This document shows positions 2,735-57,451 of a DNA stretch of 64,000 nucleotides, one piece after another. Numbering within the stretch: the stretch's first letter is position 1; the number at the start of each line of letters is the position of its first letter. This stretch comes from Candidatus Nomurabacteria bacterium (GTDB lineage: Bacteria > Patescibacteriota > Minisyncoccia > Phycocordibacterales > UBA918), in the NCBI GenBank assembly GCA_020632015.1, contig JACKGI010000001.1:87574-151573 (forward strand). Direction: 5' to 3'. The notes under the pieces are model-generated. The model was not told the origin of the DNA and searched no databases. It saw only the letters and a program-made list of their open reading frames with translations. Both the position numbers and the translations under genes were made by a program.

Positions 2735-2737
2735 TCT

Positions 2738-4650: not shown

Positions 4651-4652
4651 AT

Positions 4653-5702: not shown

Positions 5703-5751
5703 AAAACACCGAACATTCCATTGTTCGGCGCCAATAATCAGAAGTTCAGCA

Positions 5752-7281: not shown

Positions 7282-7282
7282 T

Positions 7283-8473: not shown

Positions 8474-8476
8474 TTT

Positions 8477-9910: not shown

Positions 9911-9914
9911 CTAA

Positions 9915-9955
9915 CAAAACAAAAAAGCGCAACCGGCGCTTTTTTGTTTTGTTTT
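9915..9955. terminator. bidirectional terminator between convergent genes
   Basis: aaaaaagcgcaaccggcgctttttt with A/T tracts on both sides. Confidence 0.6.
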
Positions 9956-9976
9956 TAATTTAGTATTCAACAATAC

Positions 9977-10705
9977 TTAACGATGTTTTTTAACGAAGTA
10001 CTCCTGAGAAATCATAGTTAGGTTGCTAACTACAAAATACAAAGCAATTGCTGCTGAAATTGTATAAGCCACTACTGTAATCAATACCGGCATTACAAAC
10101 CTCATTTGTGTTTGCATATTGCGCATAAAATCATCTTTCAAATTAGGTGCTGCCCCCTCTTCTTTTGGAGGTAGTTTTGGCATAGTGAGATTTACATGAA
10201 TAAATTGAGTAACACCAGCAATTAAAGCTAGAAATAAACTCCGTTCACTAATGTCGATAATACTTAGAAAGTTCATGGTCACAACCACTGGTTCGGACAC
10301 GAAGGAATATAGCAGGTCTATATTTATGTCCGGTAAAGGTACACCTCCTCCTTTGTATACTGAGAAATACAAAGCAATCACGATTGGGATTTGAAGGAAG
10401 ATTAAAAAAATACTAGCTAGTGGGTTCATTCCTGCTTCTTGGTAAATTGCCAACATGGCTTGGGACTGAGCTTGTTTGTCGTCTTTGTGTTTTTCTCTAA
10501 CCTCTTTAAGTTTTGGCTCGATTTCCCTCATTACTTTTTGGGTTTTTACCGCCTTAATCGAAACAGGAAGAAGGATTGTTTTCACAAGTAAAACAGTTGC
10601 AATAATTGCTAAACCAACATCTCCACCGGGAATAATATCAATAAAAAAAACCAGTGTGTTATAAACTGGGTCGAAAAATAAATTGTGCCAAATTGAACTA
10701 AACAT
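9977..10705 (-). CDS. yidC: membrane protein insertase YidC (short form)
   Basis: 242 aa polytopic protein in the conserved rpmH-rnpA-yidC order. LLVKTILLPVSIK and MNPLASIFLIFLQIPI are YidC/Oxa1-like segments. Confidence 0.85.
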   Translation of the reverse strand: MFSSIWHNLFFDPVYNTLVFFIDIIPGGDVGLAIIATVLLVKTILLPVSIKAVKTQKVMREIEPKLKEVREKHKDDKQAQSQAMLAIYQEAGMNPLASIFLIFLQIPIVIALYFSVYKGGGVPLPDINIDLLYSFVSEPVVVTMNFLSIIDISERSLFLALIAGVTQFIHVNLTMPKLPPKEEGAAPNLKDDFMRNMQTQMRFVMPVLITVVAYTISAAIALYFVVSNLTMISQEYFVKKHR

Positions 10706-12838: not shown

Positions 12839-12842
12839 TTTT

Positions 12843-12874
12843 AAAAACCGCTTCCTAATTAGGAAGCGGTTTTT
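12843..12874 (+). terminator. terminator after dnaA
   Basis: aaaaaccgcttcctaattaggaagcggttttt. Confidence 0.7.
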
Positions 12875-12879
12875 AAAAT

Positions 12880-13163
12880 TATTTCAAGAGTTGGTAGTCT
12901 GTGTAAAACAAACTATAATAGTGGGGAGAAAGACTTAAAAGGGTGTGGTCAAGGTTAGTATTTTTAAAAAGTTATACACAAAATATTAATAATCTTAGGT
13001 GATACAAATAACTATCCACAACTGTTTTAACAGCTACTAAGTTTATACCAACAGTTTAATCTCAAAAGGTGTCTTTAGATAGCAATAAAACACACCACAA
13101 TTTATACTTTTGCACACTTCCACACCCCTAATAATAGAGAGTAAAATAGATTAAATAAAAAAT
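12880..13163. other. candidate oriC segment in the dnaA-dnaN intergenic region
   Basis: ttatacaca 12972-12980 and ctatccaca 13012-13020, with very AT-rich flanks. The dnaA-dnaN spacer is the classical oriC position. Confidence 0.5.
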
Positions 13164-26255: not shown

Positions 26256-26462
26256 TAATCATTACTTTGTCGTCACGAGTTACTAACCAGAATCATTCGC
26301 TACGCTCTGATTCTGCTAAGTACTCTCGACCCCGGCTCGCTGTTCGCCGCCTTAGGAAAGGGCGACTCACAACGCTCCGCCTCGGACAGACGCCGCGAGT
26401 GACATTGGTCACTCGCTAAATGAAAACACCAGTCATGTGACTGGTGTTTTCATTTGCGTCTG
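26256..26462 (-). repeat. GC-rich tRNA-3'-flank module E1 (downstream of tRNA-Lys)
   Basis: Hairpin 26421-26455. tcactcgctaaat (26409-26421) is shared with E3. The 36-mer at 26283-26318 is 34/36 identical to E2 (40194-40229) in the same orientation relative to the tRNA. Confidence 0.5.
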
Positions 26463-26535
26463 TCCGCCCTCAAGGGCTCGAACCTTGGACCATCTCCTTA
26501 AAAGGGAGCCGCTCTACCAACTGAGCTAAGGGCGG
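26463..26535 (-). tRNA. tRNA-Lys (anticodon UUU)
   Basis: Hand-folded cloverleaf: acceptor CCGCCCT/AGGGCGG, D arm GCTC..GAGC, anticodon loop CTTTTAA, T arm CAAGG-TTCGAGC-CCTTG. No encoded CCA. Confidence 0.9.
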
Positions 26536-26700
26536 GAATATTTATTATATCCACCATCTTCTTAATTAAGGGGTAGATAGTGCGGGGCACTGTCTACGCT
26601 ACTGAACTAAGACTAAGGGCGGGAATATTTATTATATCCACCATCTTCTTAATTAAGGGGTAGATAGTGCGGGGCACTGTCTACGCTACTGAACTAAGAC
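26526..26700. repeat. 2 x 87-bp perfect tandem repeat covering the tRNA-Lys 5' end and upstream region
   Basis: 26526-26612 equals 26613-26699. Each unit carries the first 10 nt of the tRNA plus TATAAT-containing upstream sequence and a degenerate D-arm-like tail, actgaactaag. Confidence 0.9.
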
Positions 26701-30936: not shown

Positions 30937-33900
30937 ATGAAAAAAATTCTAAACCCTGTTAAATATTTTTTAAGTTTTGCTCTAGTTTTACTTACTGTCT
31001 TTTGTGTCTCTTCACTTGTTGCGTTTGCTGGTGAACCAGAGCCTGAACCAGAGCCTGGAAAAGGGGGTGGAGGTACGCCACCTGTGCCAACTGTTACGAG
31101 CTCATGGAGTCCTCAGACAGTAGAGCTTGGAACCCCACAAACCTATTCTTGGTCATCAACCGATGCTGACAGTTGTGTCAGTGGTAATGGTACTCCTCGG
31201 TCTACATCTGGTTCGATTAATCAGACTAAGGCTACTGTTGGTTCTGAAACATCAACCATCACCTGTACTGGGCCAGGAGGCTCTAAGACTAGTAGCGCTT
31301 CACGTAATGTTACTCCAACTACCAACCCTGCCATTGCTACCAGTCCGTCAACTCTTACTTTTGGTGATGTCGAACAAGGTAAGTCAAAGTCTTTGAATTT
31401 CTCTGTTAGGAATACAGGTACTGGTTCTGTAACCGGTCGAATTGGATCACCCGGACAATTTCAATGTTCTGGTGGAGCGTGCGGTGGCTTTAATATCCCA
31501 GAAGGGGGTTCAGTCTCAGCGACTATTGTATTTACTCCCGACCGAGTTGACGACTTCCTTCAAAACGTAACTGTGGTTTGTAATGAATGTTCGAACGCCT
31601 CAGTGCAGGTGACAGGAAGGGGGGTTGTTGCTCTTGGTAATCCGATGTTGGTATTGATGTCTAGAGGAGGCTTTTGGGATTTTGGAGCCACTACTAGAAT
31701 CTACCAAGCAATCATAAGAAACGGTGGAGACACAGAAGTTGATTATAGTACTTCAGGTAACGGTGACTTCCAGTGTCACAGCAATTGTTCTGGTACTTTA
31801 GCTATTGGGCAAGAGAGAACTGTTTATATAGAAAGAAATCCTTTTTCGTGTATCTTTGGGAATACGGGTTCTATCTCAGGCACAATCACTATTACCGGTA
31901 GTTACTTGGCCGTAAGTCCGGCCTACAACAACCCGATCACCTTTGGTGTTTCTGGTGCGTGTGGTGGCGGTGGTGGCGGTGGAGGCGGAGGAACAAACGG
32001 AGTTTGTGGTTCTTCAGATGGAGGGACATTCGCTTCAATGCCAGCTTCAAACCGATGTACTACTGGTACTTACTCCGGAACAGACACTAGCGGTGCCGAC
32101 GGAGCGTTCAATTGGAACTGTGCTGGTTCAGGGGGAGGAACCACAGCTTATTGTTCGGCTACAAACAGTTCAGTACCACCCCCTCCGCCAAGCGCCACTA
32201 TCCCAACAGTTATTAATCCAACCAATACTAATGTGACGGAGACCACCGCTACTCTAGGAGCTAGAATTAGTTCAAACGGAGGCTCTACTATCACTGCTCG
32301 TGGTACTTGTTGGTCAACTACCAATACCACACCAAGTCTAGGACAAAACTGTAGTACCGGTGGAACCGCTACTGGAGTCTTTACTCACAACAGAACTGGA
32401 TTGCCAGCCGGAACCACTATCTACTATCGAGGATATGCAACCAATGGTGTTGGTACTGGTTACTCCGCTGGAGCTAGTTTTACTACTTCAGTTTCTGTAC
32501 CAAACACCGCTCCATCAGCAAACGCTGGAAGTGATAGGAATATAGTTACACCAACAAACTCTGCTACTCCAAATGGAGCTAGCGCCAATGACTCTGACGG
32601 AACAATCGCATCGACAGTCTGGAGTAAGGTCAGCGGACCGTCGGGGGGCAACATAACTAATGGAACAACCTTAAATCCAACATTCAACGGAATGAATACA
32701 GTTGGTACATATGTGTTTAGACTGACTGTGACAGATAATGACGGAGCAACAGATACTGATGATATGCGAGTTGTGGTTTCTGCTTCTGCTATCAACACCG
32801 CTCCATCAGCAAACGCTGGAAGTGATAGGAATATAGTTACACCAACAAACTCTGCTACTCCAAATGGAGCTAGCGCCAATGACTCTGACGGAACAATCGC
32901 ATCGACAGTCTGGAGTAAGGTCAGCGGACCGTCGGGGGGCAACATAACTAATGGAACAACCTTAAATCCAACATTCAACGGAATGAATACAGTTGGTACA
33001 TATGTGTTTAGACTGACTGTGACAGATAATGACGGAGCAACAGATACTGATGATATGCGAGTTGTGGTTTCTGCTTCTGCTCCAGTTTCTGTTCCAACAG
33101 TTATCAATCCAACTAATACAAGCGTTACTGATACTACTGCTACTCTGGGAGCGACTGTTAGTTCAGATGGGGGTTCGGCTGTCACAGCTAGAGGGACTTG
33201 CTGGGCGACCTCACCAAACCCAACTACTAATTGTAGTAGTGCTGGAGGTACCGGAGTAGGTTCTCCATTCACACATAATCGAACTGGACTACCAGCCGGA
33301 ACAACCGTTTATTACAGGGGTTATGCAGACAATGCTAATGGAAGGGGATATTCTGTCGATGGAAGTTTTGTTACATCGGCTGCTCCTCAACCTAACCTAA
33401 CTTCTCAAAATCTCAGTTACACAGGAACTGTTCAAGAAGGGCAGACAATAAACCTAACAGCCAGAGCTAGAAATAATGGTGCGGCAGGTACTGGGTCAGG
33501 ATTTAGCGACAGATTTGAGTATCGTTACGGTGGTGCAGCAGGAGATTACTCAGGATTTGCTGGTAATACAATTAAAACTGAAGCGAATGGTGCACTTGGC
33601 GCAAGTAGCAACAACTCTGACTCGGCCTCATACACCATTCCAGTCGGAACAGCAGGACAAGAGCTTTTTATCCTCCACTGTGTTGACGTTAATAACAATG
33701 TGCCTGAGGCAGACGAATCAGTCTCGGACAACTGTTCTCTACCAATGAGCCTTAACTCTGTGGCAGTAGCTCCAGTTGATTTGGAAATTAGTAAACCACC
33801 ACTTGTGGTGAATGAAACAACCGCTTCCATCGTTAATAATGGAATTGATGGGACATACAACAATGTTCCAGTACGATTCACCATTAATAATCTTGGGACA

Positions 33901-34479
33901 GGTCCGTTGCCAGCCAATAGTTCTGTGCCGTATAAGGCAATTGTAGACGGAACCAAAGAATCAGCGCTCGATCTCTTTAATGATGCTCTAGCAGCAGCAC
34001 CGGTACCAGCAAGTAAGTCTGGCACCAAAACATTAAGAGTAGATAATATAATGTTTGGTGACCATAATGCGTGTGCCAGAGTTAACTTAGATGGTTCTAC
34101 TTATCCAGAAAGCCCAACGAATCTCGCAAACAATGAGAAATGTACAGATTTCACCTTACCAGTTCCAGAGCCGCCGATGGATATTTCTGCTGATGACCAA
34201 TTCCTTCGTTCTGGTGAGGCAACAGTAGTTAGGTGGAATGTACATACTGCCTATAACTTAAGTTGTAACGTCAGTGGACCAGGAATAAACTCAAACTTCG
34301 ATGCCTCAGCGAACCATCCTTCAGCAGTATCAACACAATCAAACACACCAGTGTTAAGTAGTACAAGTGAGTATGTGCTCACCTGTACAGCACCTGCAGG
34401 AGAGACCTTCCCTGATGGCTCTACAACTATTAGACGAACACAAACTATTGAAGTAATACCAGATTACGAAGAACAGTAG
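30937..34479 (+). CDS. giant secreted/surface protein (Ig-like, PKD x2, FN3-like x2, CARDB-like domains)
   Basis: 1180 aa. N-terminal signal/anchor, Gly9 tract, GVCGSS...W.W.C motif, duplicated PKD-like unit. The C-terminal ~350 aa is paralogous to 35804-38185. Ends in IEVIPDYEEQ. Confidence 0.7.
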   Translation: MKKILNPVKYFLSFALVLLTVFCVSSLVAFAGEPEPEPEPGKGGGGTPPVPTVTSSWSPQTVELGTPQTYSWSSTDADSCVSGNGTPRSTSGSINQTKATVGSETSTITCTGPGGSKTSSASRNVTPTTNPAIATSPSTLTFGDVEQGKSKSLNFSVRNTGTGSVTGRIGSPGQFQCSGGACGGFNIPEGGSVSATIVFTPDRVDDFLQNVTVVCNECSNASVQVTGRGVVALGNPMLVLMSRGGFWDFGATTRIYQAIIRNGGDTEVDYSTSGNGDFQCHSNCSGTLAIGQERTVYIERNPFSCIFGNTGSISGTITITGSYLAVSPAYNNPITFGVSGACGGGGGGGGGGTNGVCGSSDGGTFASMPASNRCTTGTYSGTDTSGADGAFNWNCAGSGGGTTAYCSATNSSVPPPPPSATIPTVINPTNTNVTETTATLGARISSNGGSTITARGTCWSTTNTTPSLGQNCSTGGTATGVFTHNRTGLPAGTTIYYRGYATNGVGTGYSAGASFTTSVSVPNTAPSANAGSDRNIVTPTNSATPNGASANDSDGTIASTVWSKVSGPSGGNITNGTTLNPTFNGMNTVGTYVFRLTVTDNDGATDTDDMRVVVSASAINTAPSANAGSDRNIVTPTNSATPNGASANDSDGTIASTVWSKVSGPSGGNITNGTTLNPTFNGMNTVGTYVFRLTVTDNDGATDTDDMRVVVSASAPVSVPTVINPTNTSVTDTTATLGATVSSDGGSAVTARGTCWATSPNPTTNCSSAGGTGVGSPFTHNRTGLPAGTTVYYRGYADNANGRGYSVDGSFVTSAAPQPNLTSQNLSYTGTVQEGQTINLTARARNNGAAGTGSGFSDRFEYRYGGAAGDYSGFAGNTIKTEANGALGASSNNSDSASYTIPVGTAGQELFILHCVDVNNNVPEADESVSDNCSLPMSLNSVAVAPVDLEISKPPLVVNETTASIVNNGIDGTYNNVPVRFTINNLGTGPLPANSSVPYKAIVDGTKESALDLFNDALAAAPVPASKSGTKTLRVDNIMFGDHNACARVNLDGSTYPESPTNLANNEKCTDFTLPVPEPPMDISADDQFLRSGEATVVRWNVHTAYNLSCNVSGPGINSNFDASANHPSAVSTQSNTPVLSSTSEYVLTCTAPAGETFPDGSTTIRRTQTIEVIPDYEEQ
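32503..33081 (+). repeat. perfect tandem duplication, period 291 bp (one PKD-like domain)
   Basis: 32503-32790 matches 32794-33081 by eye with no mismatch. It encodes NTAPSANAGSDRNIV...DDMRVVVSASA twice. Confidence 0.9.
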
Positions 34480-39415: not shown

Positions 39416-39886
39416 ATGGAACCATCACTGAGAAGTATTGCTTGGGAAGCTCCGGAACACCATCATGTTGAGAAAGGCAATGATTGGTTTTTTGCTTTGA
39501 TAATTATTGTCTTGGCTCTAGTTGTTGTGGCTATACTTTTTAATAATACTTTGTTTGCGCTTCTGATTGGCCTAGCTGGTGGTGCGCTTTTTGTTTCTGC
39601 TGCCAAAAGACCATCAATTATTCCGTATGCAGTCACTCTTCGCGGAATAAAAATAGACGACCGAATTTATCCATTTTCTACTCTGGATAGCTATCGAATA
39701 GATGAAGAGGACCCCAAGGGGCCACAGCTACTCATCAAGTCATCAAAAAAACTAATGCCACTCATGGTGATGCCAATTCCTGTTGACCACGTAGATGACA
39801 TCGACGATATTCTCAAAGAGAAATTAATCGAGGAAGACCTAGAGGAGCCGTTGTTAGTGAAAATTCTTGAATTGTTTGGTTTTTAA
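39416..39886 (+). CDS. two-TM membrane protein of unknown function
   Basis: 156 aa. WEAPEHHHVEKGNDWFF followed by two TM helices. TGgTACAAT (39401-39408) lies 7 nt before the ATG. Confidence 0.5.
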   Translation: MEPSLRSIAWEAPEHHHVEKGNDWFFALIIIVLALVVVAILFNNTLFALLIGLAGGALFVSAAKRPSIIPYAVTLRGIKIDDRIYPFSTLDSYRIDEEDPKGPQLLIKSSKKLMPLMVMPIPVDHVDDIDDILKEKLIEEDLEEPLLVKILELFGF

Positions 39887-39927
39887 GATGACACTAAATT
39901 ATCTTTGTGATAATATCGCTGGCACTT

Positions 39928-40002
39928 GCTCCCGTAGTTTAATGGATAAAATATTGGTTTGCGGTACCAGTGCTCCAGGTTCGATTCCTGGCGGGAGCAC
40001 CA
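39928..40002 (+). tRNA. tRNA-Arg (anticodon GCG), CCA encoded
   Basis: Acceptor GCTCCCG/CGGGAGC, anticodon stem TTGGT/ACCAG, loop TTGCGGT, T arm CCAGG-TTCGATT-CCTGG, ACCA end. Confidence 0.85.
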
Positions 40003-40264
40003 ACAGCCGACCCCGATGCGCATGCATCGGGGTCTTTGCTGATGGTAGCTACTGACAGAAATCGAACCGAGTCGCGACGAAGTCCACAGGCGAAGCCGAG
40101 GACCGCGACGAGTGGAGGTCAATGGAGTGAGATATTTTGTGACGACAGGAAACAAAATATCCACGAGAGTGACCGATTCCTGGCGGGAGCACGTAGCAGA
40201 ATCAGAGCGAAGCGAATGATTATGGTTAGATAAAATTTTCTGGGAGAAAGTTTTATCTAACCAT
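40003..40264 (+). mobile_element. GC-rich tRNA-3'-flank module E2, bounded by a 19-nt direct repeat of the tRNA-Arg 3' end
   Basis: cgattcctggcgggagcac occurs at 39982-40000 and again at 40174-40192. There is an 11-bp hairpin at ~40009-40034, a 36-mer (40194-40229) shared with E1, and a 14-bp hairpin at 40222-40264. Confidence 0.45.
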
Positions 40265-40351
40265 CAATAAACCAGCCTTGTGATCTTCAGGACGATTTGA
40301 CCACCGAGACACGGCTTTATTTGATTACTATATCCATGCTATCCTAAACTT

Positions 40352-40732
40352 ATGAAAAGAATCGGAATTGACTTTGGAACAAAAAAAATCGGTATCGCTG
40401 TATCAGATGAATCTGGTCAAATGGCTTTCCCGCACGAAGTTGTGCCAAACAATAAAGATTTCATGTCATACATAGAAAAACTTATTCAGTCCCGCCAAGT
40501 TGAGGAAATAGTTATTGGCCACTCATTAAACAATGATGGTGAGCCAAATAAAGTGCATGCAGAAGTAGAAAATTTTATTACTGATATAACACTATCACTT
40601 GGTATCCCAGTACATCTTGAGCCAGAACAATATTCTACAAAGGAAGCCTCACATATTCAGGGTAAGGACAAAATGACAGACGCATCTGCCGCCGCCCTAA
40701 TTTTGAATAGTTATATTTTAAAAAATAAGTAA
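40352..40732 (+). CDS. ruvX: YqgF/RuvX-family nuclease
   Basis: MKRIGIDFGTKKIGIAVSD N-terminus, 126 aa. Confidence 0.85.
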   Translation: MKRIGIDFGTKKIGIAVSDESGQMAFPHEVVPNNKDFMSYIEKLIQSRQVEEIVIGHSLNNDGEPNKVHAEVENFITDITLSLGIPVHLEPEQYSTKEASHIQGKDKMTDASAAALILNSYILKNK

Positions 40733-40738
40733 GTTATC

Positions 40739-41065
40739 ATGTCTATTACATACGAAGATTTTGCAAAGTTAGATATTAAAATCGGTACTATAAAATCAGT
40801 CGAGGTGGTTGATGGGGCAGATAGGTTGCTCAAATTAGAGGTTGATATTGGTGACGAGACCCGACAGATAGTGTCAGGTATTCGAGAATACTTCGAGGAC
40901 ATCCAATCTTTGGTGGGGAAGCAGTGTCCTTTTTTAGTTAACCTCGAGCCAAGGACAATCAAGGGACTAGAGAGTCAGGGTATGATTTTGGCTGTTGGCG
41001 GAGAAGATGTTTTTGCGTTACTCCATCCGAGTGGAGAAGTTCCAGCCGGATCATTGATACAATAA
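40739..41065 (+). CDS. tRNA-binding domain protein (CsaA/EMAP-II-like OB fold)
   Basis: FAKLDIKIGTIKSVEVVDGADRLLKLEVDIGDETRQIVSGI and GMILA are typical of the family. Confidence 0.75.
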   Translation: MSITYEDFAKLDIKIGTIKSVEVVDGADRLLKLEVDIGDETRQIVSGIREYFEDIQSLVGKQCPFLVNLEPRTIKGLESQGMILAVGGEDVFALLHPSGEVPAGSLIQ

Positions 41066-41069
41066 TCTC

Positions 41070-41681
41070 ATGTCACTAGAAGAAAAGATAGAGACGGGAG
41101 TTAAACAGGTCTTGGACACAAACACAGTTGGTAAAGCTCGTGAGGTTTTGCAGGCGCGTTCTGGTGTGAGGGTACTTTCTCTAATTTCTTTTTTTGAATC
41201 AGCCTTACCATTGCCGATACTGACTGACCCATTTTTAATTGCTGCCATCATGGCCGATAGGCAAAACGCCTTCAGATTAGTTGTGGCCACGACGGCCACC
41301 TCGGTTTTAGGTGGTGTATGTGCGTATTTTGGTGCTCTTTTCTTTTTTGAAACTTTATCAAGCTGGATGTCGCCAGAGGTTATGCAACAGTTTAATGAGC
41401 TAGTAGACACTAATACTTCCAGCACCTTTGTTCTCACTATTGTCGGCGCAGTAACACCAATTCCATACACAATAGTAGCTTGGGTAGTGGCAGTTCTTAA
41501 GGGTAGCCCGCTGGCCTTCATTATTGCTTCTGTTGTGGGGCGGGGAGGCCGGTATGCCATTGTTGGTTATTGCGTTTATCGTTTTGGTCCTTTGGCAATT
41601 ACTTATGCTAAGCGCTACATCGGGCTGACTTCAGTCATTGTCTTAATTCTTGCTGGTTTATTCTTTTGGCTAAAGATGTGA
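41070..41681 (+). CDS. YqaA/DedA-type membrane protein
   Basis: FFESALPLPILTDPFLIAAIMA motif and 4-5 TM helices. The antisense ORF 41051-41560 is rejected. Confidence 0.6.
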   Translation: MSLEEKIETGVKQVLDTNTVGKAREVLQARSGVRVLSLISFFESALPLPILTDPFLIAAIMADRQNAFRLVVATTATSVLGGVCAYFGALFFFETLSSWMSPEVMQQFNELVDTNTSSTFVLTIVGAVTPIPYTIVAWVVAVLKGSPLAFIIASVVGRGGRYAIVGYCVYRFGPLAITYAKRYIGLTSVIVLILAGLFFWLKM

Positions 41682-41732
41682 GTTGTCGTCTCGAAACGAA
41701 CGCCTTAACAGCGTATACTAGAGTAATAATCT

Positions 41733-42821
41733 ATGTCGGTTCTTTCTAACATTTTGCCACCGCCAATATTTTTAACCATGCCTTGTGTTGGGGTGGATAT
41801 TTCTGATACTTCACTTAAGTATGTATCTTTCCATACTGCCACCAGATCTAGCACACAAAGGAAGATTAAGCAGTGGGGAGACATTTCGATACCAAACGGT
41901 ATCGTGCAACGAGGACAAGTAATGGATGTTCAGAAGTTAGTTTCTGTCCTAAAAGAATTTAAAGCTGCCACCAAAGCGGAATTCATAAGAGTCTCACTTC
42001 CAGAAGAAAAAGCTTATTTGTTCGAGACGACAATCAAGCCAAACACACCACTAAAAGAAATTCGCGGATTGCTAGAGTTTCGTTTAGAGGAGAATGTACC
42101 AATTCCGTCTAAGGATGTTTATTTTGATTATCTACTTTTATCAGACGGGTCAGACAAAAAAAGTGTCGAGGTGGCAGTTGCTGCTTATCCAAAAGAAACT
42201 ATCCAAAAATATTATGACGCATGTGTGGAGGCCGATTTAAAACCAGTTTCTTTTGAGGTTGAGGCTCAAGCAGTAGCTAGAGCAGTTGTGCCAGAAGATG
42301 TGAAAGGGGCGACCATGTTGGTTGATTTTGGCAAGACTAGAACAGGAATTGGTATCGTCTACAAAAATGTCCTACTGTATACCTCAACTATTGATATCGG
42401 TGGCGATGCTCTGTCTCAGGCGCTTCGCAAGGTTTTGGGGTCGGATGTAGCAGAAGAGGAATTAACGAACCTAAAAAATACCCAAGGTTTAGTAAGAGGA
42501 AAGGACTCTGCAGAAGTGCATGACACGCTAATCAGCACAATTTCTGTCATAAAAGATGAGCTGGCAACAAGAATGCAGTATTGGCACTTACGTAACGGCA
42601 GTAGCGCTGAGAGACGTATCAGTTCAGTTTTGTTGTCGGGCGGGAGCTCAAACTTAAAAGGTTTGCCAGCTTATCTAACAGAATCTCTGAATGTACCTTG
42701 CGTACAGGCCAACGTTTGGGAGAATACTTTTTCTCTTGAGACAACAGTTCCACCAATTAGTCTTAGAAAGTCGTTTGGTTATGCGACGGCGGTTGGTCTA
42801 GCGTTAAAACAAGACACGTAA
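41733..42821 (+). CDS. pilM: type IV pilus assembly protein PilM
   Basis: 362 aa actin-like ATPase-fold pattern (GVDISDTSLKYV, LVDFGKTRTGI, LLSGGSSNLKGL), followed by pilN/O-like genes. Confidence 0.8.
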   Translation: MSVLSNILPPPIFLTMPCVGVDISDTSLKYVSFHTATRSSTQRKIKQWGDISIPNGIVQRGQVMDVQKLVSVLKEFKAATKAEFIRVSLPEEKAYLFETTIKPNTPLKEIRGLLEFRLEENVPIPSKDVYFDYLLLSDGSDKKSVEVAVAAYPKETIQKYYDACVEADLKPVSFEVEAQAVARAVVPEDVKGATMLVDFGKTRTGIGIVYKNVLLYTSTIDIGGDALSQALRKVLGSDVAEEELTNLKNTQGLVRGKDSAEVHDTLISTISVIKDELATRMQYWHLRNGSSAERRISSVLLSGGSSNLKGLPAYLTESLNVPCVQANVWENTFSLETTVPPISLRKSFGYATAVGLALKQDT

Positions 42822-42825
42822 TTCT

Positions 42826-43371
42826 ATGATTAACTTAATCCCACCAAGTGCAAAAAAAGACCTAAAGAGAGAATATTGGGTCAGGGTCATTGCTGTGTGG
42901 TTATTGCTCTGGTCGGTGTTTCTTGTGGTGGGTGCCTGCTTACTTTTTCCAGTTTATGTCTTGATTGGTTCTCAAGTTGCTGTGTATAAAGACTCGGCTG
43001 AAGAGGCCTCACAAAGAGTGACTAGCTATGAGAACGTTACAACAACATTAGTTCAAGCAAGTCTGCAAGCAAAATTCGTTCTAGATGAAATTGCCGTACC
43101 AGTATTCTCAGAACAAATTGAATTATTTGAAACCTTAGAGGGTTCTGAAATTAAAATTAATAAAATTTATATCGGAAGAGGAGCGGACGGTATTGCCCCG
43201 ATATCACTTTCTGGCATAGCTAGTGGTCGACAAGCATTAGCTAGTTTCCGTGACAGAATATTAAATCTCGAAAATGTCGAGGATGTAGATTTGCCGATTT
43301 CAAATCTAGCTCAAGATAAAAATATACCATTTACCATTAAGGTTACTTTAATTAATCAAAAAGAGGTATGA
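42826..43371 (+). CDS. pilN: PilN-like pilus assembly protein
   Basis: MINLIPP start, a single TM, 181 aa. Position is after pilM. Confidence 0.6.
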   Translation: MINLIPPSAKKDLKREYWVRVIAVWLLLWSVFLVVGACLLFPVYVLIGSQVAVYKDSAEEASQRVTSYENVTTTLVQASLQAKFVLDEIAVPVFSEQIELFETLEGSEIKINKIYIGRGADGIAPISLSGIASGRQALASFRDRILNLENVEDVDLPISNLAQDKNIPFTIKVTLINQKEV

Positions 43372-43895
43372 GCAAGAGCACCAAAAATATAGTATTAATA
43401 TCAATCATCATTTTTGTTGCTTCGGCGGTTAGTTTGGGTGTAATGGCGTATCAGGTAAAAGAGCAGGGTAATCAACTGTCTAGTCATGTAGCTACTTTAC
43501 AGGCCGAAAGCGCTCAAGTTGAGTCCTATAATAAGCTCAAAAAAATATCAGAAGAAACCACAGAAGACCGAGATCTGTTACAAAGTTATTTCCTAGAGAA
43601 GGAAAGTAATAGTATTGATTTCCTTAATTTGGTCGAATCATTGGCTCCTCAGGCAGGAGTGCAGTTAGATACAGAAGGTTTGGATGTGCTAGAAACTGGA
43701 GAAAATGGTGCAAAATGGATAGAGGTTTCTTTTGTCTTTTCAGCTTCTAGAGAAAGAGTTCAAAATTTCATTAAGGTTTTAGAAACCCTACCTTACGTGC
43801 TTAGACTGACTTCAGTCGAGATGGATGGTATGAGTGCTTCAGAGTGGGAGGCCAGAGTAACAATGCAGGTACAAATATTGGATTATGATAAATAA
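43368..43895 (+). CDS. PilO-like pilus assembly protein
   Basis: 175 aa, single N-terminal TM, coiled-coil segment. ATGA overlap with pilN. Confidence 0.5.
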   Translation: MSKSTKNIVLISIIIFVASAVSLGVMAYQVKEQGNQLSSHVATLQAESAQVESYNKLKKISEETTEDRDLLQSYFLEKESNSIDFLNLVESLAPQAGVQLDTEGLDVLETGENGAKWIEVSFVFSASRERVQNFIKVLETLPYVLRLTSVEMDGMSASEWEARVTMQVQILDYDK

Positions 43896-44391
43896 AAAAG
43901 AATTTTCAAAAATTGCAAAAAGGATTTTTCACGCCAAGAGTAGTTTGCAAAATCCAAGAATAATGAATCCATCCCGCGAGTGGGGGATTGGTTTATTGAT
44001 TGGCTTCGCTTTCTTTATTGCCACGGCTGGTTGGAGTGCTCAGACTTATTTGTCTAATAAAAATGTTGGAGACATAACAAGTGACTCCTCTCAAGATGAG
44101 GTAATCGTTTATAGGGCGTCCATGGTAGAGGCCGCACTTAAGGCTTATGAACAACGCAATCAAAAACATCAACAGTTACTGAATAAAACATATGTTGCTC
44201 CTCCTGTTATTGAGGAAATAGTCGAGGAAGACACAGTTGATGAAACTTCAACTTCTAGCGAAAACGCAGAAGCAGTTTTGCCGGAGCAAAGTCTAGAAGT
44301 GAATGCAGAAGAAGTTTCAGGGGCGGAAGAAGAACCGTCAGAACCGACAGAGCCGGTAGAAGTGGCTCCTGATGTATTGTTATCGGAATAA
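43885..44391 (+). CDS. membrane-anchored protein with acidic tail (pilMNO operon member)
   Basis: 168 aa. TM helix WGIGLLIGFAFFIATAGW. Overlaps the pilO-like stop by 11 nt. Confidence 0.45.
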   Translation: MINKKEFSKIAKRIFHAKSSLQNPRIMNPSREWGIGLLIGFAFFIATAGWSAQTYLSNKNVGDITSDSSQDEVIVYRASMVEAALKAYEQRNQKHQQLLNKTYVAPPVIEEIVEEDTVDETSTSSENAEAVLPEQSLEVNAEEVSGAEEEPSEPTEPVEVAPDVLLSE

Positions 44392-44404
44392 GGATTTGAG
44401 TCAA

Positions 44405-44448
44405 AAAATAAAACGATTGCTCTGGTCGAGCAATCGTTTTATTTTTTT
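44405..44448. terminator. bidirectional terminator
   Basis: aaaataaaacgattgctctggtcgagcaatcgttttattttttt. Confidence 0.8.
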
Positions 44449-44453
44449 CGCGG

Positions 44454-44525
44454 TGCCCCCAGTAGGAATCGAACCCACATCAAAAGGATAGAAGCCTCTC
44501 GTTTTATCCATTAAACTATAGGGGC
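44454..44525 (-). tRNA. tRNA-Arg (anticodon UCU)
   Basis: Acceptor GCCCCTA/TGGGGGC, anticodon loop CTTCTAT, T arm GTGGG-TTCGATT-CCTAC. 72 nt. Confidence 0.9.
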
Positions 44526-44593
44526 GGCAGGGGTAACCATAGCAAATTTTTTGAACTAAGAAAACACCTGCAAAGAGTATTTCTTGCAGGTGT

Positions 44594-44965
44594 TCAGTCT
44601 TCCAGAGTAAAACGAAAATCGTTCGTTTCGTTATTGGTTCTTTGAAAACCATTTTGACTCCAAAAACACTCACTATTATTGGATACTTGCACGGCCTGAA
44701 TGTGTGCAAATTTACTCTCTCTTGCCCATGTAAGTATAGTGTGAAGAACGATGCTTCCGTAGCCCTTACCTCTTTCCGGCTCGGGCATGGTGGTAATATC
44801 TGTAATAACCAGACCCTCCTTGCCCGTGTCGTTGTTAAAAACTAGTCGAACTGTGATGATTGCATCATGTTTATGAAACGTGCAAACAACAGCTTTTTCT
44901 TCAGGGTGCCAATTGCATTCCTTAACAAAGCAAATTTTAACTAAACTCAAGATGTGTTTATCCAT
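44594..44965 (-). CDS. GNAT-family N-acetyltransferase-like protein
   Basis: RGKGYGSIVLHTILTWARE...FWSQNGFQ. Start at MDKHIL, with GGAGG (44974-44978) 8 nt upstream. Terminator hairpin at ~44558-44590. Confidence 0.55.
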   Translation of the reverse strand: MDKHILSLVKICFVKECNWHPEEKAVVCTFHKHDAIITVRLVFNNDTGKEGLVITDITTMPEPERGKGYGSIVLHTILTWARESKFAHIQAVQVSNNSECFWSQNGFQRTNNETNDFRFTLED

Positions 44966-45024
44966 CGCCAGTTCCTCCAAGAGTATGTCTGCCCTAAGGA
45001 TACTGATTGTGGTTTTTGGTGCAA

Positions 45025-45057
45025 GTGCGCGATGAGGGACGACGTTAGAACGGTTTT
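45025..45057. repeat. degenerate copy (B) of the tRNA-Val 3' end plus shared extension
   Basis: gtgcgcgatgagggac versus tRNA gtgcgcgatgagagac (15/16). The extension gacgttagaacggtttt is shared with copy C. Confidence 0.6.
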
Positions 45058-45116
45058 GCAAGAGAAAAGCCCTGTATATTAAATACAGGGCTGATTCAGA
45101 GAGTGTCTATCAGTAG

Positions 45117-45443
45117 TTAGAAGTTAAGCCGAAACTCTGTTCCGTAATCATTGAAACCTAGTCGGATATACCATTCGTGAACTGTAGAGCGTGTTCCGTC
45201 GTTACGACTTGTCGCAATGAGCTTATAGCAGTTTTCCTCTGCCTTTTTCAATACAGCTTCAAGCAATTCTTTGGCGATACCTTCACCTCGATAGCTTGAA
45301 TCCACAAACACGTCTTCCAGTAAACCAAATGGTCTATTATGTAAATCATTGTTGAGCATATAAAGATATGCTCGACCAACTTCTTTGCCGTCTCTTAATA
45401 CTGAAAACCGTATACCTTTTGTATAAACCGCAGCTTCTTTCAT
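45117..45443 (-). CDS. GNAT-family N-acetyltransferase
   Basis: VDSSYRGEGIAKELLEAVLKKAEE (acetyl-CoA-binding motif A). AAGGAGA (45449-45455) lies 5 nt upstream. Terminator hairpin at ~45070-45095. Confidence 0.75.
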   Translation of the reverse strand: MKEAAVYTKGIRFSVLRDGKEVGRAYLYMLNNDLHNRPFGLLEDVFVDSSYRGEGIAKELLEAVLKKAEENCYKLIATSRNDGTRSTVHEWYIRLGFNDYGTEFRLNF

Positions 45444-45564
45444 GGGTATCTCCTTTGAGTACTTCTAAGATGTAAAACTTGGCGACATAAACAAAAGTTC
45501 TAAAGTATTCACTTTTTCAATTCAGTATATAAAAATGAGCCTTGCAAAACAGACTCATTTTATT

Positions 45565-45597
45565 TGCACGCGATGTGGGGCGATGTTAGAACGGTTT
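45565..45597. repeat. degenerate copy (C) of the tRNA-Val 3' end-derived repeat
   Basis: gcgatgtggggcgatgttagaacggttt versus copy B gcgatgagggacgacgttagaacggttt (25/28). Confidence 0.55.
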
Positions 45598-45626
45598 GAC
45601 TGATGAGGTTGAGGTATAATTTTTAC

Positions 45627-47081
45627 ATGGAACCAGAAACTGTCACTCAAGAGCAAGAAAAATTTGGGAGTATAAAAAAAGAAACCTCCGCAGCAAAATA
45701 CTTAGCAATGGCACTTTTTATTACCTTGCCGTTTATTGGTGGATGGATTGGGTATCAGTATGGAAAAAATGAAAGCAAAGGGGACAGTCTTGCGAGGTTA
45801 GCAGTAGAAGAGAGGGTTGATGTCTCCGACAACCCTGAAGTAAATTATGAAGAGAAAACATATTATTCCAATAAGTTAAATCTGTCTTTTTATATTCCAG
45901 ACGGGTGGGAGATTGTTCCTGGGGCAGACGTGAAAGCGCCAGCTGCAATTTCTGATATAAAATTATCTCTTCGTGAACCAGGTTCCGGGTGTGTGATTGC
46001 TTTTGCTGATTTAGATTTGGATAATCATGATTACGTGCAAACTTCTTTTGGGGCAAGGGTGAGCAGTAATGTGTCTCAATATGGTGGTAATTGGTATACC
46101 AACCAAGCTTTCTATGAAAGTAAAATTTCTTTTTCTGGAGATGATAGACAGTATCTAGCACACGAAGTTTTAAGTGATTACTTAGGGGGGCATAGCAGTT
46201 TGCTATGGCAAGAGGACAATGATCCAGTTTCAGCTAATTGTGTTAAAGCTTACGAAGGTCTGGTTGCAAGTTCTAACTATCATTATATGGAATACAGCCA
46301 TACTGGTTATATTGATGGTTTAATTTCAGTCAGCAGGTCGTATGCAGGTAGAGATTCTGGGCTTGAAGATACTTTAAGACTAATTTTTTCTGTAGAGGAC
46401 AGCGCCACCCGGAACAACGGAAACATTTATGAAATTATTGAAATGCCTTGGAGTGTGAACGGATCTAGGATTTTTGTTGATGGTCTAGCTTTTAATTTCT
46501 ATTCTTCTGATGAGGATGGCGGTATAGTTTTTAATAAGTATGATTTAGAGAAAGGATACGTAGAGGAGATATTTGAACACCCTGAAGGAGGAGATTCTTA
46601 TGTAGTGGACTATATTTTTACTAGTAATGGAGAAGTTTACTATCTAGCTGGTTCAGATGGAAATTATGCTTGTATGGATGGTTACAAATCAGTATGTAGT
46701 TTAACCCTTTATAAATTCTCTCCGTCTGAGAGCGGCAAACCCGTTCCTCTGGTTTCGAGTGTTAAAGCTACTAAAATATTCGGTGTAGCTGAAGACGGAA
46801 CCATACATATGGCCAGAGGTTATGGAGATGCTGGTTGTGTTAGTGCCACATTCTCCAGTTATAAAGATGGAGAATATCAAGAGGGAGAGGGGTTGGGAGG
46901 CTGTGTAGGTCTTAATGGTCCTGATGAAGGGTATGTGGAATACCATAAAAGGCTAGATTTGATAAAAGACAGTATAACGAGTGACTATACTAAAATGCTT
47001 TTCTACCAAAACTCCAAGCTCACCGCCACCACCTCAGAGTCTCACAACAATATCTCATCTAGCTTTGTGATTCTAGATTAA
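45627..47081 (+). CDS. membrane-anchored extracytoplasmic protein of unknown function
   Basis: Start at MEPETV, with TATAAT (45615-45620) 6 nt upstream. TM helix YLAMALFITLPFIGGWIGY. Terminator at ~47140-47160. Confidence 0.55.
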   Translation: MEPETVTQEQEKFGSIKKETSAAKYLAMALFITLPFIGGWIGYQYGKNESKGDSLARLAVEERVDVSDNPEVNYEEKTYYSNKLNLSFYIPDGWEIVPGADVKAPAAISDIKLSLREPGSGCVIAFADLDLDNHDYVQTSFGARVSSNVSQYGGNWYTNQAFYESKISFSGDDRQYLAHEVLSDYLGGHSSLLWQEDNDPVSANCVKAYEGLVASSNYHYMEYSHTGYIDGLISVSRSYAGRDSGLEDTLRLIFSVEDSATRNNGNIYEIIEMPWSVNGSRIFVDGLAFNFYSSDEDGGIVFNKYDLEKGYVEEIFEHPEGGDSYVVDYIFTSNGEVYYLAGSDGNYACMDGYKSVCSLTLYKFSPSESGKPVPLVSSVKATKIFGVAEDGTIHMARGYGDAGCVSATFSSYKDGEYQEGEGLGGCVGLNGPDEGYVEYHKRLDLIKDSITSDYTKMLFYQNSKLTATTSESHNNISSSFVILD

Positions 47082-47165
47082 AGTATTTTGGAAAATAAAA
47101 TCCATTTCTAACAACCTTACTGCTTATGAAACAAGAAAAAATGCCCGCAAAGCGGGCTAACTAAT

Positions 47166-47356
47166 GTGCGCGATGAGAGACTTGGCGCCAGTTCTAAACT
47201 CGTCATTCTTCCTTGTTAAGAACTCGCTGCCCCGGCGCTCAAATCGTCCTCACTTCGTTCCGGGCGATAAATTCGCTTTCTTCAAGTCTCCCCTCACTCG
47301 CTAAATCTGAGACACAATAGACCCCAGACTATACAGTCTGGGGTCTATTGGTCTAG
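47166..47356 (-). mobile_element. GC-rich tRNA-3'-flank module E3, bounded by a 19-nt direct repeat of the tRNA-Val 3' end
   Basis: gtgcgcgatgagagacttg occurs at 47356-47374 (tRNA) and at 47166-47184. A 15-bp hairpin sits at ~47317-47349. tcactcgctaaat (47294-47306) is shared with E1. Confidence 0.45.
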
Positions 47357-47429
47357 TGCGCGATGAGAGACTTGAACTCCCGACCTTCTCGGTGTAAACG
47401 AGCTGCTCTACCAACTGAGCTAATCGCGC
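47357..47429 (-). tRNA. tRNA-Val (anticodon UAC)
   Basis: Acceptor GCGCGAT/ATCGCGC, D arm GCTC..GAGC, anticodon loop TTTACAC, T arm GGGAG-TTCAAGT-CTCTC. 73 nt, no CCA. Confidence 0.9.
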
Positions 47430-47519
47430 ATGTAAATATTTATTTGTAGGCATTATCCTACTCAATTTTCAGAAAAAAACAATAGGGCTGGCTTTACAGG
47501 TAAAGCCAGCCCCTTTCGT

Positions 47520-47696
47520 TTAACGACGTATGCACGATGTCGGTGGTCTGCGGGATAGTCCGCGATTAACCTCATCTCGTCTCGGAGTTGGTATTTTTGC
47601 TTCCGTCTTTTCCTTCTTTTCTGGCGGAAGACAACCGTGCTCGTTGAGATATGAACGATTCTTCATAATAGCGTCGTATACGGGTGTGTCAGTCAT
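47520..47696 (-). CDS. small basic protein (58 aa), below track cutoff
   Basis: Hand translation gives MTDTPVYDAIMKNRSYLNEHGCLPPEKKEKTEAKIPTPRRDEVNRGLSRRPPTSCIRR. GAAGGAG (47703-47709) lies 6 nt upstream, and TTGCAA-17-TATAAA is further upstream. Terminator hairpin plus T-tract at ~47478-47515. Confidence 0.35.
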   Translation of the reverse strand: MTDTPVYDAIMKNRSYLNEHGCLPPEKKEKTEAKIPTPRRDEVNRGLSRRPPTSCIRR

Positions 47697-47778
47697 CAAT
47701 GACTCCTTCTATTGTTTTGGTACGGCCAGTTTCTTTTATAATTCGAAATTGTTATTTTTGCAAGGTATACTGTCACTT

Positions 47779-48051
47779 ATGATTGAAATTCATTGTGTTG
47801 TTACCGGACACGTACAGGGCGTGGCCTACAGAACATATGTCCAAGAGTCAGCAATGGAACTTGAGCTGGTAGGTTATGTGAAAAATTTATCTGATGGTTC
47901 AGTGAAGGTAGTAGCTCAGGGGGCACCAGATACTCTCAAGGATTTTGTTGAATATCTTCACGAAGGTTCTTTAATGTCTGTTGTGGAAGGAGTGGCGGTT
48001 GAATGGAGGAGTGCTGATAAAACTTACACAGAATTTTCTTTGTTACACTAA
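47779..48051 (+). CDS. acyP: acylphosphatase
   Basis: VTGHVQGVAYRTYV and GYVKNLSDGSVKVVAQG motifs. ATG at 47779, with TATACT 7 nt upstream. The track N-terminal extension is rejected. Confidence 0.8.
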   Translation: MIEIHCVVTGHVQGVAYRTYVQESAMELELVGYVKNLSDGSVKVVAQGAPDTLKDFVEYLHEGSLMSVVEGVAVEWRSADKTYTEFSLLH

Positions 48052-56394: not shown

Positions 56395-56472
56395 TTCAAT
56401 GAGTATACCAGTTCAAGCCTCTCATTAGGGTATCTAGAAAAGCCTTATAAAACTTACTTAAAAATGCGGGGC

Positions 56473-56676
56473 GGCTACCGGTAATCGTCCTGACGGTCAC
56501 CAAGTTATTTTATTTCGTACCTCATAAAATAACTGGTGCCGCGGGACACGGCTCCTTTGTTTGCAAGCTCACATCAGTCCACCGTTCGATTCCGGACGAA
56601 AGTGACGCAGGTCACTTTCTTAGCACTTTCACCAAAAAGAAACCTCTTCCAAAAGGGAAGAGGTTTCTTTTTGCCG
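56473..56676 (+). ncRNA. ~200-nt structured, partly GC-rich insertion ending in a strong terminator
   Basis: Absent from the paralogous segment at 57283-57384. 15-bp hairpin at 56498-56538. GAAAGTGAC/GTCACTTTC hairpin at 56598-56619. T-loop-like GTTCGATTCC. Terminator aaagaaacctcttccaaaagggaagaggtttcttttt at 56636-56672. Confidence 0.35.
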
Positions 56677-56760
56677 ATGGGCGACGTCGTAGAGGATGTT
56701 CGAACTGTGTTTGAACGATTGCAAGATGAAACGATTTGCATTCCAGTATTCAAGTTCTAG
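56677..56760 (+). CDS. mini-ORF (27 aa), paralog of 57344-57451
   Basis: MGDVVEDVRTVFERLQDETICIPVFKF. The first 36 nt are identical to the paralog, and the remainder is conserved at the protein level (D.T..IP.F). Confidence 0.3.
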   Translation: MGDVVEDVRTVFERLQDETICIPVFKF

Positions 56761-56780: not shown

Positions 56781-57272
56781 CTATTCAGGTAAATCTATTA
56801 TGTCAGACAGGTATTGACCAGTTTGTAGAAACACCACATTTGAACCTTCAAATCTATCCGTCTGCTCTTTGTTACTAGCGAAAGAAGCATCAATAAATCT
56901 TTCTACCATCTCTGGTTTATTTCCTCTTGAAATATATCGTTTTCTATATTCATCTTGGAGATTTTCGTCAGCACAAACAACTGTCACTTCGTATCCTCGG
57001 GCAGTTAGTTCTTTTACTATTTCAGGGTATGAGCTTATCAGTAGCAAATTATTTTGCCTCATTTCTTCTTCAATCTTTTTAAGATAATTGTCTGGCCAGG
57101 TTTGGTCTTTACGGTAAGGGCTTGAATCTAAATCAAGCACACTTATGTCGCTAGTCGAAAAATTATCTATCAAAGTAGTTTTTCCGATACCAGGAGTTCC
57201 AGCAATAATTCCTTGTGGTTTTATTTTCTCGATACTCTCGTTCTTCTCAATTCTAAATTTTTCTCCTTCCAT
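56781..57272 (-). CDS. P-loop NTPase/kinase-like protein
   Basis: GIIAGTPGIGKTTL Walker A, ~163 aa from MEGEKF. TGGTATACT (-10 at 57282-57287) lies 9 nt before the ATG. Confidence 0.6.
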   Translation of the reverse strand: MEGEKFRIEKNESIEKIKPQGIIAGTPGIGKTTLIDNFSTSDISVLDLDSSPYRKDQTWPDNYLKKIEEEMRQNNLLLISSYPEIVKELTARGYEVTVVCADENLQDEYRKRYISRGNKPEMVERFIDASFASNKEQTDRFEGSNVVFLQTGQYLSDIIDLPE

Positions 57273-57343
57273 ATTAAAAATAGTATACCAGTTCAGACCT
57301 CCCATTAGGGTGTCTGAAATATCCTTATATTACCTGCTTCAAA

Positions 57344-57451
57344 ATGTTGGGCGACGTCGTAGAGGATGTTCGAACTGTGTTTGAGGATAGGAATGATGTG
57401 ACGTTGTATATTCCTATGTTTAATTGTGTAAGTGTTGCTACAATAAGTTAA
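57344..57451 (+). CDS. mini-ORF (35 aa) translationally coupled to the nuclease gene
   Basis: MLGDVVEDVRTVFEDRNDVTLYIPMFNCVSVATIS. The stop overlaps the next start (TAATG at 57449-57453). Confidence 0.4.
   Translation: MLGDVVEDVRTVFEDRNDVTLYIPMFNCVSVATIS

Follow-up and report, generated by a model that had tools for sequence, protein, structure and literature searches.

The window analysed here, 64,000 nucleotides of a single contig, carries a tRNA-Val(UAC) gene on its minus strand at 47356-47429, called by ARAGORN and matched by the Rfam family RF00005 with 67 bits. The Rfam match ends at 47357, which is A73, so that C74 lies at 47356 and C56 at 47374; CCA is not encoded, and nt 74 is the C at 47356. 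The sequence of this tRNA is identical in the relatives L005 and L007 and in most of the loci retrieved by the scan described below. The neighbouring genes have housekeeping functions (acylphosphatase, UppS, polyprenyl synthase, RluA, and L19), and the closest UppS homologues as well as the contigs of the same species are labelled Paceibacteria or Kaiserbacteria (Patescibacteria/CPR). Upstream of the tRNA, the window has a G+C-rich stretch (47455-47730) with a 58-aa ORF on the minus strand (47520-47699) that is also called in L005 and L007-L009; in L002, a separately assembled ENA scaffold, a run of N occupies this place (~3480-3600), ~20 bp upstream of tRNA-Val.

The 3' end of the tRNA-Val gene, nt 56-74 (CAAGTCTCTCATCGCGCAC), occurs in exactly two copies, 190 nt apart. 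Read on the plus strand, the 19-mer GTGCGCGATGAGAGACTTG matches exactly at 47356-47374 and at 47166-47184, without a third site in the window at up to 3 mismatches, and the number of matches expected by chance from dinucleotide shuffles is 0.00. The repeat had been reported in a first-pass annotation of the window, and both its coordinates and its extent were reproduced exactly. Absence of the repeat from other data would have refuted that report; in L002, the tRNA, the module (designated E3), and the distal repeat are all identical to the window.

The interior of the repeat measures 171 nt and holds only a spurious ORF overlapping the tRNA, and the E3 interval has ~50% G+C compared with 40% for the window. 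The parts of E3, all on the minus strand, follow the order found across the family described below: tRNA, hairpin, inverted copy, core, and a direct copy ending at C74. The proximal 19-mer (47356-47374), an exact match, is the putative recombination target. Straight after C74, the left end of the insertion is formed by the trailer TAGACC (47350-47355), which is conserved in relatives and is kept as TAGACC or TAGCAC ahead of the hairpin both in E3-type modules (L036, L014, and L058) and in older layers (L016 and L019). The hairpin, hp1 (47316-47349), is supported by sequence and fold and consists of a 15-bp stem (47335-47349 with 47316-47330) closed by a 4-nt loop (47331-47334), as the first-pass annotation had described it. 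The stem sequences are wholly different among homologues, yet a hairpin is retained between the conserved TAGACC and GTGTCTCAGATT. Across the family, hp1 is usually a terminator with a T-run. The suggestion that the proximal hairpin terminates the tRNA transcript was not borne out for E3, where hp1 has no T-run behind it and is not called by the terminator scan; the sole intrinsic terminator on this strand lies beyond the distal tag (ATTAGTTAGCCCGCTTTGCGGGC and a T-run).

Behind hp1, the conserved spacer GTGTCTCAGATTT (47303-47315), common to L036, L014, L016, and L019, leads into an imperfect inverted copy of tRNA nt 54-70 (47281-47301; GCGAGTGAGGGGAGACTTGAA on the minus strand, TTCAAGTCTCCCCTCACTCGC on the plus strand), which had gone unmentioned before. 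The 13-mer ATTTAGCGAGTGA, correctly noted as exact at 47294-47306 and in the tRNA-Lys module at 26409-26421 (both on the minus strand), overlaps the 5' part of this inverted copy. The segment is able to pair with either copy of the 19-mer, and folds pair it with the T-arm of the tRNA. The equivalent copy is perfect in younger members of the family, as in L012, where GTGCGCGATGA and GTGAGACTTGAA stand on either side of a hairpin. The E3 copy is imperfect and has no counterpart of this second hairpin, hp2; given its degenerate inverted copy, E3 may be an immobile, fixed, inactive copy.

The stretch from 47185 to 47280 is a folded core of the E3 type, supported by a covariance model and by covariation; it includes a helix ATCGCNC/GN'ACGAT, a mini-hairpin C(GAA)G, and, next to the tag, a basal helix. 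The first-pass annotation had seen here a GC-rich stretch of GCGA/ACGA words; GC-rich it is, but the words belong to a core whose fold is conserved. The distal 19-mer, or tag (47166-47184), again an exact copy of tRNA nt 56-74, makes up the right end of the insertion. It is followed, at 47133-47165, by a displaced old trailer (ATTAGTTA) and the intrinsic terminator found by the scan (GCCCGCTTTGCGGGC, then ATTTTTTCTT). This trailer and terminator are homologous to ATTAGATGGCCCGCTTTGCGGGC, which stands directly 3' of tRNA-Val in L054, as would be expected of a displaced original trailer. Because the only terminator follows the tag, it can be inferred that E3 is probably co-transcribed with tRNA-Val.

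The covariance model, R1, was built from six E3-type cores (from L014, L036, L037, L053, with two copies, and L058) and includes neither window sequence nor the tag. It has a single match in the window, at 47179-47288 on the minus strand (74.4 bits, E 2.5e-17), and 10 matches over all loci; the E3 core groups with copies in L014, L036, L037, L053, L058, L070, and L073. Among 10 E3-type cores, 95% of cells pair and double changes are found at 7 of 16 pairs. The covariation score of 0.31, against 0.12 in shuffles, was reached by none of 500 shuffles, slid controls collapse, and an independent MAFFT alignment of the cores gives the same picture. One G.U pair on the tRNA-sense strand is conserved in 9 of 9 cores, and in 21 of 24 Val modules the fold of this strand is more stable than that of its complement, which together mark the tRNA-sense strand as the folding strand, whether as RNA or as single-stranded DNA. 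Covarying, strongly conserved cores are also what a host-beneficial RNA would show. The C(GAA)G mini-hairpin appears as GCGAAGC in L053 (1010-1025) and in the tail of E2, the module behind tRNA-Arg(GCG), and as ACGAAGT in E3 (~47245-47255), with covarying flanking bases. GCGAAGC forms an unusually stable mini-hairpin in DNA, and its presence may hint at a single-stranded DNA stage.

A scan for the 19-mer in one genome per species (species representatives) identified 48 loci, nearly all in Patescibacteria. Seven of them have a second exact copy 172-259 nt downstream, and in one the second copy is 4.8 kb off; a metagenome scan for copies of the 19-mer without a preceding T yielded more modules, together with five chance matches in GC-rich coding DNA. 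When 85 tRNAs from related Patescibacteria loci with adequate flanks were considered, 30 had a copy of their own 3' end, direct and/or inverted, within 400 nt downstream, and the upstream control for the same 85 gave no direct and one inverted match. For tRNA-Val alone, 19 of 38 genes carry modules. Dozens of modules stand behind tRNA-Val, Leu(GAG), Leu(CAG), Arg(UCU), Arg(GCG), and His, their sense and antisense segments matching the respective tRNA, so that a lack of further family members, which would have refuted the first-pass annotation, is not what is observed.

The family architecture comprises the tRNA, a trailer with hp1, an inverted copy of nt 54-74, a GC/purine-rich core, and the direct tail copy, and in the best-preserved modules the inverted copy is split at nt 63/64 by hp2. 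The tag is a direct copy, 19-22 nt long, of tRNA nt 53/54/56-74; it ends at C74 in all family members and starts at C56 in E2, E3, and most members of types A and C. Module size is ~170-260 nt, and dozens of modules are without coding remnants. The same core types recur behind different tRNAs, with tag and inverted copy fitted to the local tRNA each time. The earlier proposal of one recombination mechanism acting on different tRNAs is upheld as far as a recurrent module with shared boundaries behind many tRNAs is concerned, while the recombination mechanism itself remains inferred. The idea that the tag decays faster than the inverted copy found no support: in about a dozen curated modules, mismatches per nucleotide came to roughly ~9% in the tag and ~8% and ~3% in the left and right halves of the inverted copy.

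Searches against Rfam 15 returned only tRNA matches (the window at the gathering score, 39800-47800 at E ≤10, and nine module loci at E ≤0.1). A scan of IMG/VR with two 19-mers and three core motifs gave a single chance match, in a GC-rich phage, and thus no support for a phage or provirus origin. A tandem or inverted tRNA pseudogene was likewise rejected, the sequence upstream of the distal tag and past the inverted copy being unlike the remainder of either tRNA-Val or tRNA-Arg. Full-text literature searches yielded no account of such modules, and the family, a large one, is apparently undescribed.

Further modules occur within the window. Behind tRNA-Arg(GCG), E2 has its 19-mer, CGATTCCTGGCGGGAGCAC, at 39982-40000 and 40174-40192; the boundaries are again nt 56-74, as the first-pass annotation had recognized, at a spacing of 192 vs. 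190. Past the distal tag of E2, at 40193-40300, there is a hairpin (CAGAATCA..TGATTATG), an AT-rich hairpin, and GTGATCTTCAGGACGATT, which is common to E4, and this suggests a second, older module layer behind tRNA-Arg(GCG). E1, a 190-nt module behind tRNA-Lys (26272-26461, minus), lacks a Lys tag and ends in ...GTTAGTAACTCGTGAC. The inverted segment of E1, GCGTCTGTCCG, pairs with the trailer together with the final 5 nt of the tRNA, and a degenerate Arg-like end, CGAGAGTAC, lies inside E1. E1 and E2 have a significant common block of ~50 nt, and apart from the exact 13-mer the similarity of either to E3 is within the shuffle range; the hp1 sequences differ among E1-E4, all copies in one genome. 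A perfect 87-bp tandem duplication (26526-26699) takes in the first 10 nt of tRNA-Lys(UUU) and the region upstream, and the 5' end of this tRNA is thus repeated 87 bp upstream.

Three things indicate insertion, namely the stacking of modules, a mismatched tag in L058, and the module E4 with its empty paralogous site. In L016, L019, L064, and L070, another module, truncated but recognizable by its trailer and hairpin, comes after the distal tag. The E3-type arrangement TAGACC-hairpin-GTGTCTCAGATT takes the proximal place in the window and in L014 and L036, but the distal one in L016 and L019; in such stacks, newer modules precede older ones. In L058, the tag departs from the resident tRNA-Val allele at 2 positions, upstream of a common 8-nt end. 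E4 (~56469-56677, minus), the fourth module, occupies a non-tRNA site and possesses hp1, hp2, an inverted T-loop copy, a core, and a 19-nt tag corresponding to C56-C74 of a His-like tRNA. It sits in one copy of a tandemly duplicated segment (56393-56473/57273-57353 and 56678-56753/57348-57423), and the paralogous site 880 bp away (57260-57440) is uninterrupted, which provides an empty site of the kind whose complete absence would have spoken against the first-pass annotation. The first base of E4 and its flank create a new ATG for a short ORF (MGDVVEDVRTVFE...).

The two E4 junctions have only G(T/C)CGCCC, a ~7-nt repeat, in common. Together with the empty paralogue, they define a unit that spans from just after the last nucleotide of the target to the end of its own tag, so that the tag travels along. 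L058 and E4 suggest that the element brings the distal repeat with it, and that this repeat is not simply a displaced native tRNA end. The presence/absence of E4 could alternatively reflect a precise deletion and not an insertion. For E3, an all-against-all BLAST of the loci revealed no close pair differing in module content, and hence no strain-level filled/empty polymorphism; its empty state is only inferred, from the homologous trailer in another species (L054).

tRNA-Val is also used by larger elements. In L005, L007, L020, L039, and L042, large serine recombinase genes are convergent on tRNA-Val, and their ORFs run into the tRNA 3' end; the cargo differs per species and in L005 includes Schlafen/AlbA_2, GIY-YIG, HTH, and DnaA_C-like proteins. 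In L042, a 5.5-kb island with a confirmed recombinase separates the tRNA from a complete older module, and a 27-nt pseudo-3' end forms the end of the island. The C56-C74 segment that recurs in this locus with 18/19 matches is the tag of the module and lies outside the island's own attR. The window has a degenerate 27-nt copy of the tRNA-Val 3' end of its own (GTTCTAACGTCGTCCCTCATCGCGCAC; 45025-45051, minus), a third copy that had not been mentioned before, and the same variant is present at the far end of the L042 island, ahead of modules in L053 and L070 (where the retrieved locus has no tRNA gene), and ahead of the second module in L036. The copy at 45025-45051 looks like the attR of a former serine-recombinase island. 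Between it and E3 lie a 484-aa gene without a Pfam match and a GNAT acetyltransferase gene, and the ~2.1 kb at 45025-47165 are probably the remains of such an island, its recombinase lost. Islands, pseudo-3' ends, and modules at one tRNA make tRNA-Val a layered integration hotspot, in which the modules lie outside the serine-recombinase islands and do not have the attP arm in common with them.

The reading that we favor, with somewhat more confidence than doubt, is that E3 (47166-47355, minus) is a 190-bp non-coding, non-autonomous insertion element, one of a family widespread among Patescibacteria that lands directly 3' of tRNA nt 74 by recombination between its tag and the tRNA end. The unit would comprise, in order, the trailer with its own hairpin, the inverted copy of nt 54-74 (decayed in E3), the core, and the 19-nt tag at its right end. 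The tag of the element would recombine with the identical tRNA gene end, as attP does with attB, and the direct repeat would then consist of the target and the element tag. Such an insertion would leave the tRNA intact and move the former trailer and terminator 190 bp downstream. In the free form, an inferred intermediate that is possibly circular or hairpin-folded, the tag would be contiguous with the trailer, hp1, and the inverted copy, allowing a long hairpin that mimics the target duplex. The predicted junctions are tRNA-Val C74 joined directly to ATTAGTTAGCCCGC at the empty site and ...CTGGCGC-CAAGTCTCTCATCGCGCAC joined to TAGACCAATAG in a free circle, though no free or circular form of the module was seen.

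As no protein is encoded in E3, the inferred enzyme must act in trans. No recombinase is found within ~9 kb of E3, the Pfam annotation of the surrounding 20 kb contains no recombinase, transposase, or reverse transcriptase (RT), and none of the three is among the best 25 Pfam families of the 64 window ORFs. For 98 ORFs downstream of tRNA-Val elsewhere, the best 25 Pfam families likewise include no recombinase, transposase, or RT except serine recombinases. A serine recombinase was rejected as the direct agent in view of its different P arm, its 27-nt pseudo-3' end, and the whole modules lying outside the islands, although its action in trans is not excluded. Insertion through tag recombination leaves unexplained how a core type, on moving to another tRNA, comes to have a tag and an inverted copy that match it.

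An unlikely alternative, which we nonetheless keep in view, is that the module is a mobile element programmed by base pairing, in which the ~21-nt antisense segment would serve as guide for a trans-acting enzyme on single-stranded DNA, or in which the unit would be excised as RNA and copied back into DNA. As a guide, the antisense segment, which hp2 interrupts in younger copies, would base-pair initially with the 3' end of the tRNA and subsequently with the tag of the element itself, thereby presenting both cleavage/joining sites, each exactly after nt 74. Such a mechanism would resemble that of IS200/IS605 or of folded attC/CTX sites, except that its guide would be long and open to retargeting. 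In the RNA version, the tRNA 3'-processing machinery would excise the unit at both C74 boundaries before it is copied back. Either version would account for tRNA-specific segments interleaved with conserved scaffold, for one scaffold recurring behind six isoacceptors, and for both boundaries falling after nt 74.

The modules might also not be mobile at all. They could be host-encoded, vertically inherited, cis-acting trailer RNAs (processing or folding regulators, or precursors of small RNAs derived from the 3'-ETS) whose antisense segment pairs with the 3' half of the tRNA, the repeat having arisen by local duplication. Modules always lie downstream of the tRNA on the same strand, the position of the sole terminator after the tag makes co-transcription likely, the sense-strand structure is conserved with G.U pairs, and the inverted copy complements the cognate tRNA whatever the isoacceptor, all of which speaks for such RNAs. 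We nevertheless judge this joint reading improbable, since an identical tRNA-Val with an orthologous promoter is followed by other module types or by none (19 of 38 with a module), truncated older modules stand behind newer ones, E4 occupies a non-tRNA site with a foreign tag, the L058 tag does not match the local tRNA, and several lineages show decayed tags and inverted copies. Transcription and an RNA-level role of the modules are likely and would be compatible with mobility.

It is harder still to regard E3 as the deletion remnant (attL-attR scar) of an integrase-bearing island or prophage in tRNA-Val, with the repeat as an ordinary att duplication. Separate deletions would not converge on a single architecture, and dozens of equally small modules (~170-260 nt) lack coding remnants and have covarying cores common to several species and different tRNAs. 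The serine recombinase genes abutting tRNA-Val in L005, L007, L020, L039, and L042 do lend this explanation some weight, as does the degenerate tRNA-Val end 2.1 kb downstream (45025-45051), which shows that an island was once at this site. However, islands leave a different, 27-nt pseudo-3' end, beyond which complete modules are found, and the 18/19 copy of the C56-C74 segment that, with the tRNA, flanks the 5.5-kb island in L042 belongs to a module and not to the island attR. A chance repeat or an assembly or scaffolding artefact can be set aside for practical purposes: only the generic risk in metagenome-assembled genomes and the scaffold gap ~20 bp upstream of the tRNA in the other assembly speak for it, against 0.00 expected shuffle matches, an identical second assembly, and the same architecture in >30 loci from unrelated studies.

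Integrative islands and prophages inserting at tRNA genes, as Reiter in 1989 and Williams in 2002 are said to have described, reportedly duplicate an att segment covering the 3' part of the tRNA, the T-loop being a known crossover sublocation. E3 resembles them in that its repeat is the 3' part of a tRNA from the T-loop to the gene end and the tRNA is intact. The tRNA gene fragments left by integration, and the duplication of tRNA 3' fragments by integrating elements, are well known (PMC9897764, which cites both works as refs 52-53). Successive insertions stack at one tRNA here as well, and serine-recombinase islands use the same tRNA-Val in relatives. Unlike these islands, E3 measures 190 bp, encodes neither an integrase nor any other gene, and contains a folded core and an internal inverted copy of its target; moreover, the same cores occur behind at least 6 isoacceptors with matched tags, and the ectopic E4 needed only ~7 nt of identity.

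Cis-mobilizable elements (CIMEs) have att sites without recombination genes (ICEberg 2.0, PMC6323972). Like CIMEs and bacterial MITEs, the modules are non-coding, present in several copies per genome, and presumably mobilized in trans. CIMEs, however, are kb-sized and derive from a recognizable parent ICE, whereas no parent was found for the modules, and MITEs are bounded by terminal inverted repeats and duplicate a short target (2-10 bp), neither of which applies to E3. The left end of E3 (TAGACC with its hairpin) and its right end (the tag) do not form an inverted pair; the inverted copy lies inside the element, and the direct repeat has 19 nt.

Folded single-strand recombination sites include the integron attC site and the attP(+) hairpin of CTX phage, which mimics dif (IMEX elements). 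In the ends of IS200/IS605 elements, internal 'guide' bases, 4-5 nt in length, pair with the cleavage site. The modules recall all three, as their internal inverted copy and target copy may form a target-like duplex, with strand-specific folding. Branch or bulge features are represented by hp2 at nt 63/64 in younger members, and the lack of an encoded recombinase is shared with IMEX. In contrast to integrons and CTX phage, the target of the modules is a tRNA end and not dif or attI, with no link to IntI, Xer, or TnpA shown, and their pairing segment, at ~21 nt, greatly exceeds the 4-5 nt of the IS200/IS605 guides. The T-loop sequences of the modules, GTTCAAG and GTTCGAT, misfit the integron R' core GTTRRRY (R'' RYYYAAC); no integrase appears among the best 25 Pfam families of the 64 window ORFs, and there is no cassette array. 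A PATE or omega-RNA end derived from IS200/IS605 would call for conserved subterminal hairpins recognized by TnpA and for tnpA or tnpB in the genome. Neither tnpA nor tnpB is among the best Pfam families of the window and of the 98 ORFs downstream of tRNA-Val, whole genomes being outside this comparison, and the variation of hp1 within one genome (E1-E4) argues against a sequence-specific hairpin. RNAs from tRNA 3' external transcribed spacers, such as 3'ETS-leuZ of E. coli, are structured RNAs that lie downstream of a tRNA in one transcription unit with it, as is likely for E3 too; unlike E3, these spacers are not known to be repeated, to contain a copy of the tRNA end, or to be inserted units.

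Patescibacteria, or Candidate Phyla Radiation, have very small, gene-dense genomes, yet ~1/3 of the sampled tRNA genes have at least one such unit. If mobile, the modules would be among the smallest site-specific insertion elements known, with tRNA ends as their safe landing sites, and the modules would serve to trace horizontal exchange and to mark hotspots of integration in uncultured bacteria. Retrotransposons in compact eukaryotic genomes use tRNA ends as safe landing sites (PMC5006619). The alternation of scaffold with target-matched sense and antisense segments raises the possibility of target recognition by base pairing. In addition, the modules shift the terminator of the tRNA to a new position and probably extend the tRNA transcript by a structured RNA, and the tRNA fragments downstream will confuse island finders and tRNA annotation.

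Elsewhere in the window, ~1-10000 holds a type IV secretion-like cluster (TrbL, PrgI, TraC-like, VirB4/TraG P-loop, and T4SS pilin) adjoining yidC-rnpA-rpmH-dnaA, the origin region. A perfect 64-bp palindrome with 32-nt arms and no spacer lies at 12827-12890, and a 291-bp tandem repeat of 98% identity (32487-33068) is located inside a 1180-aa ORF (30937-34476).
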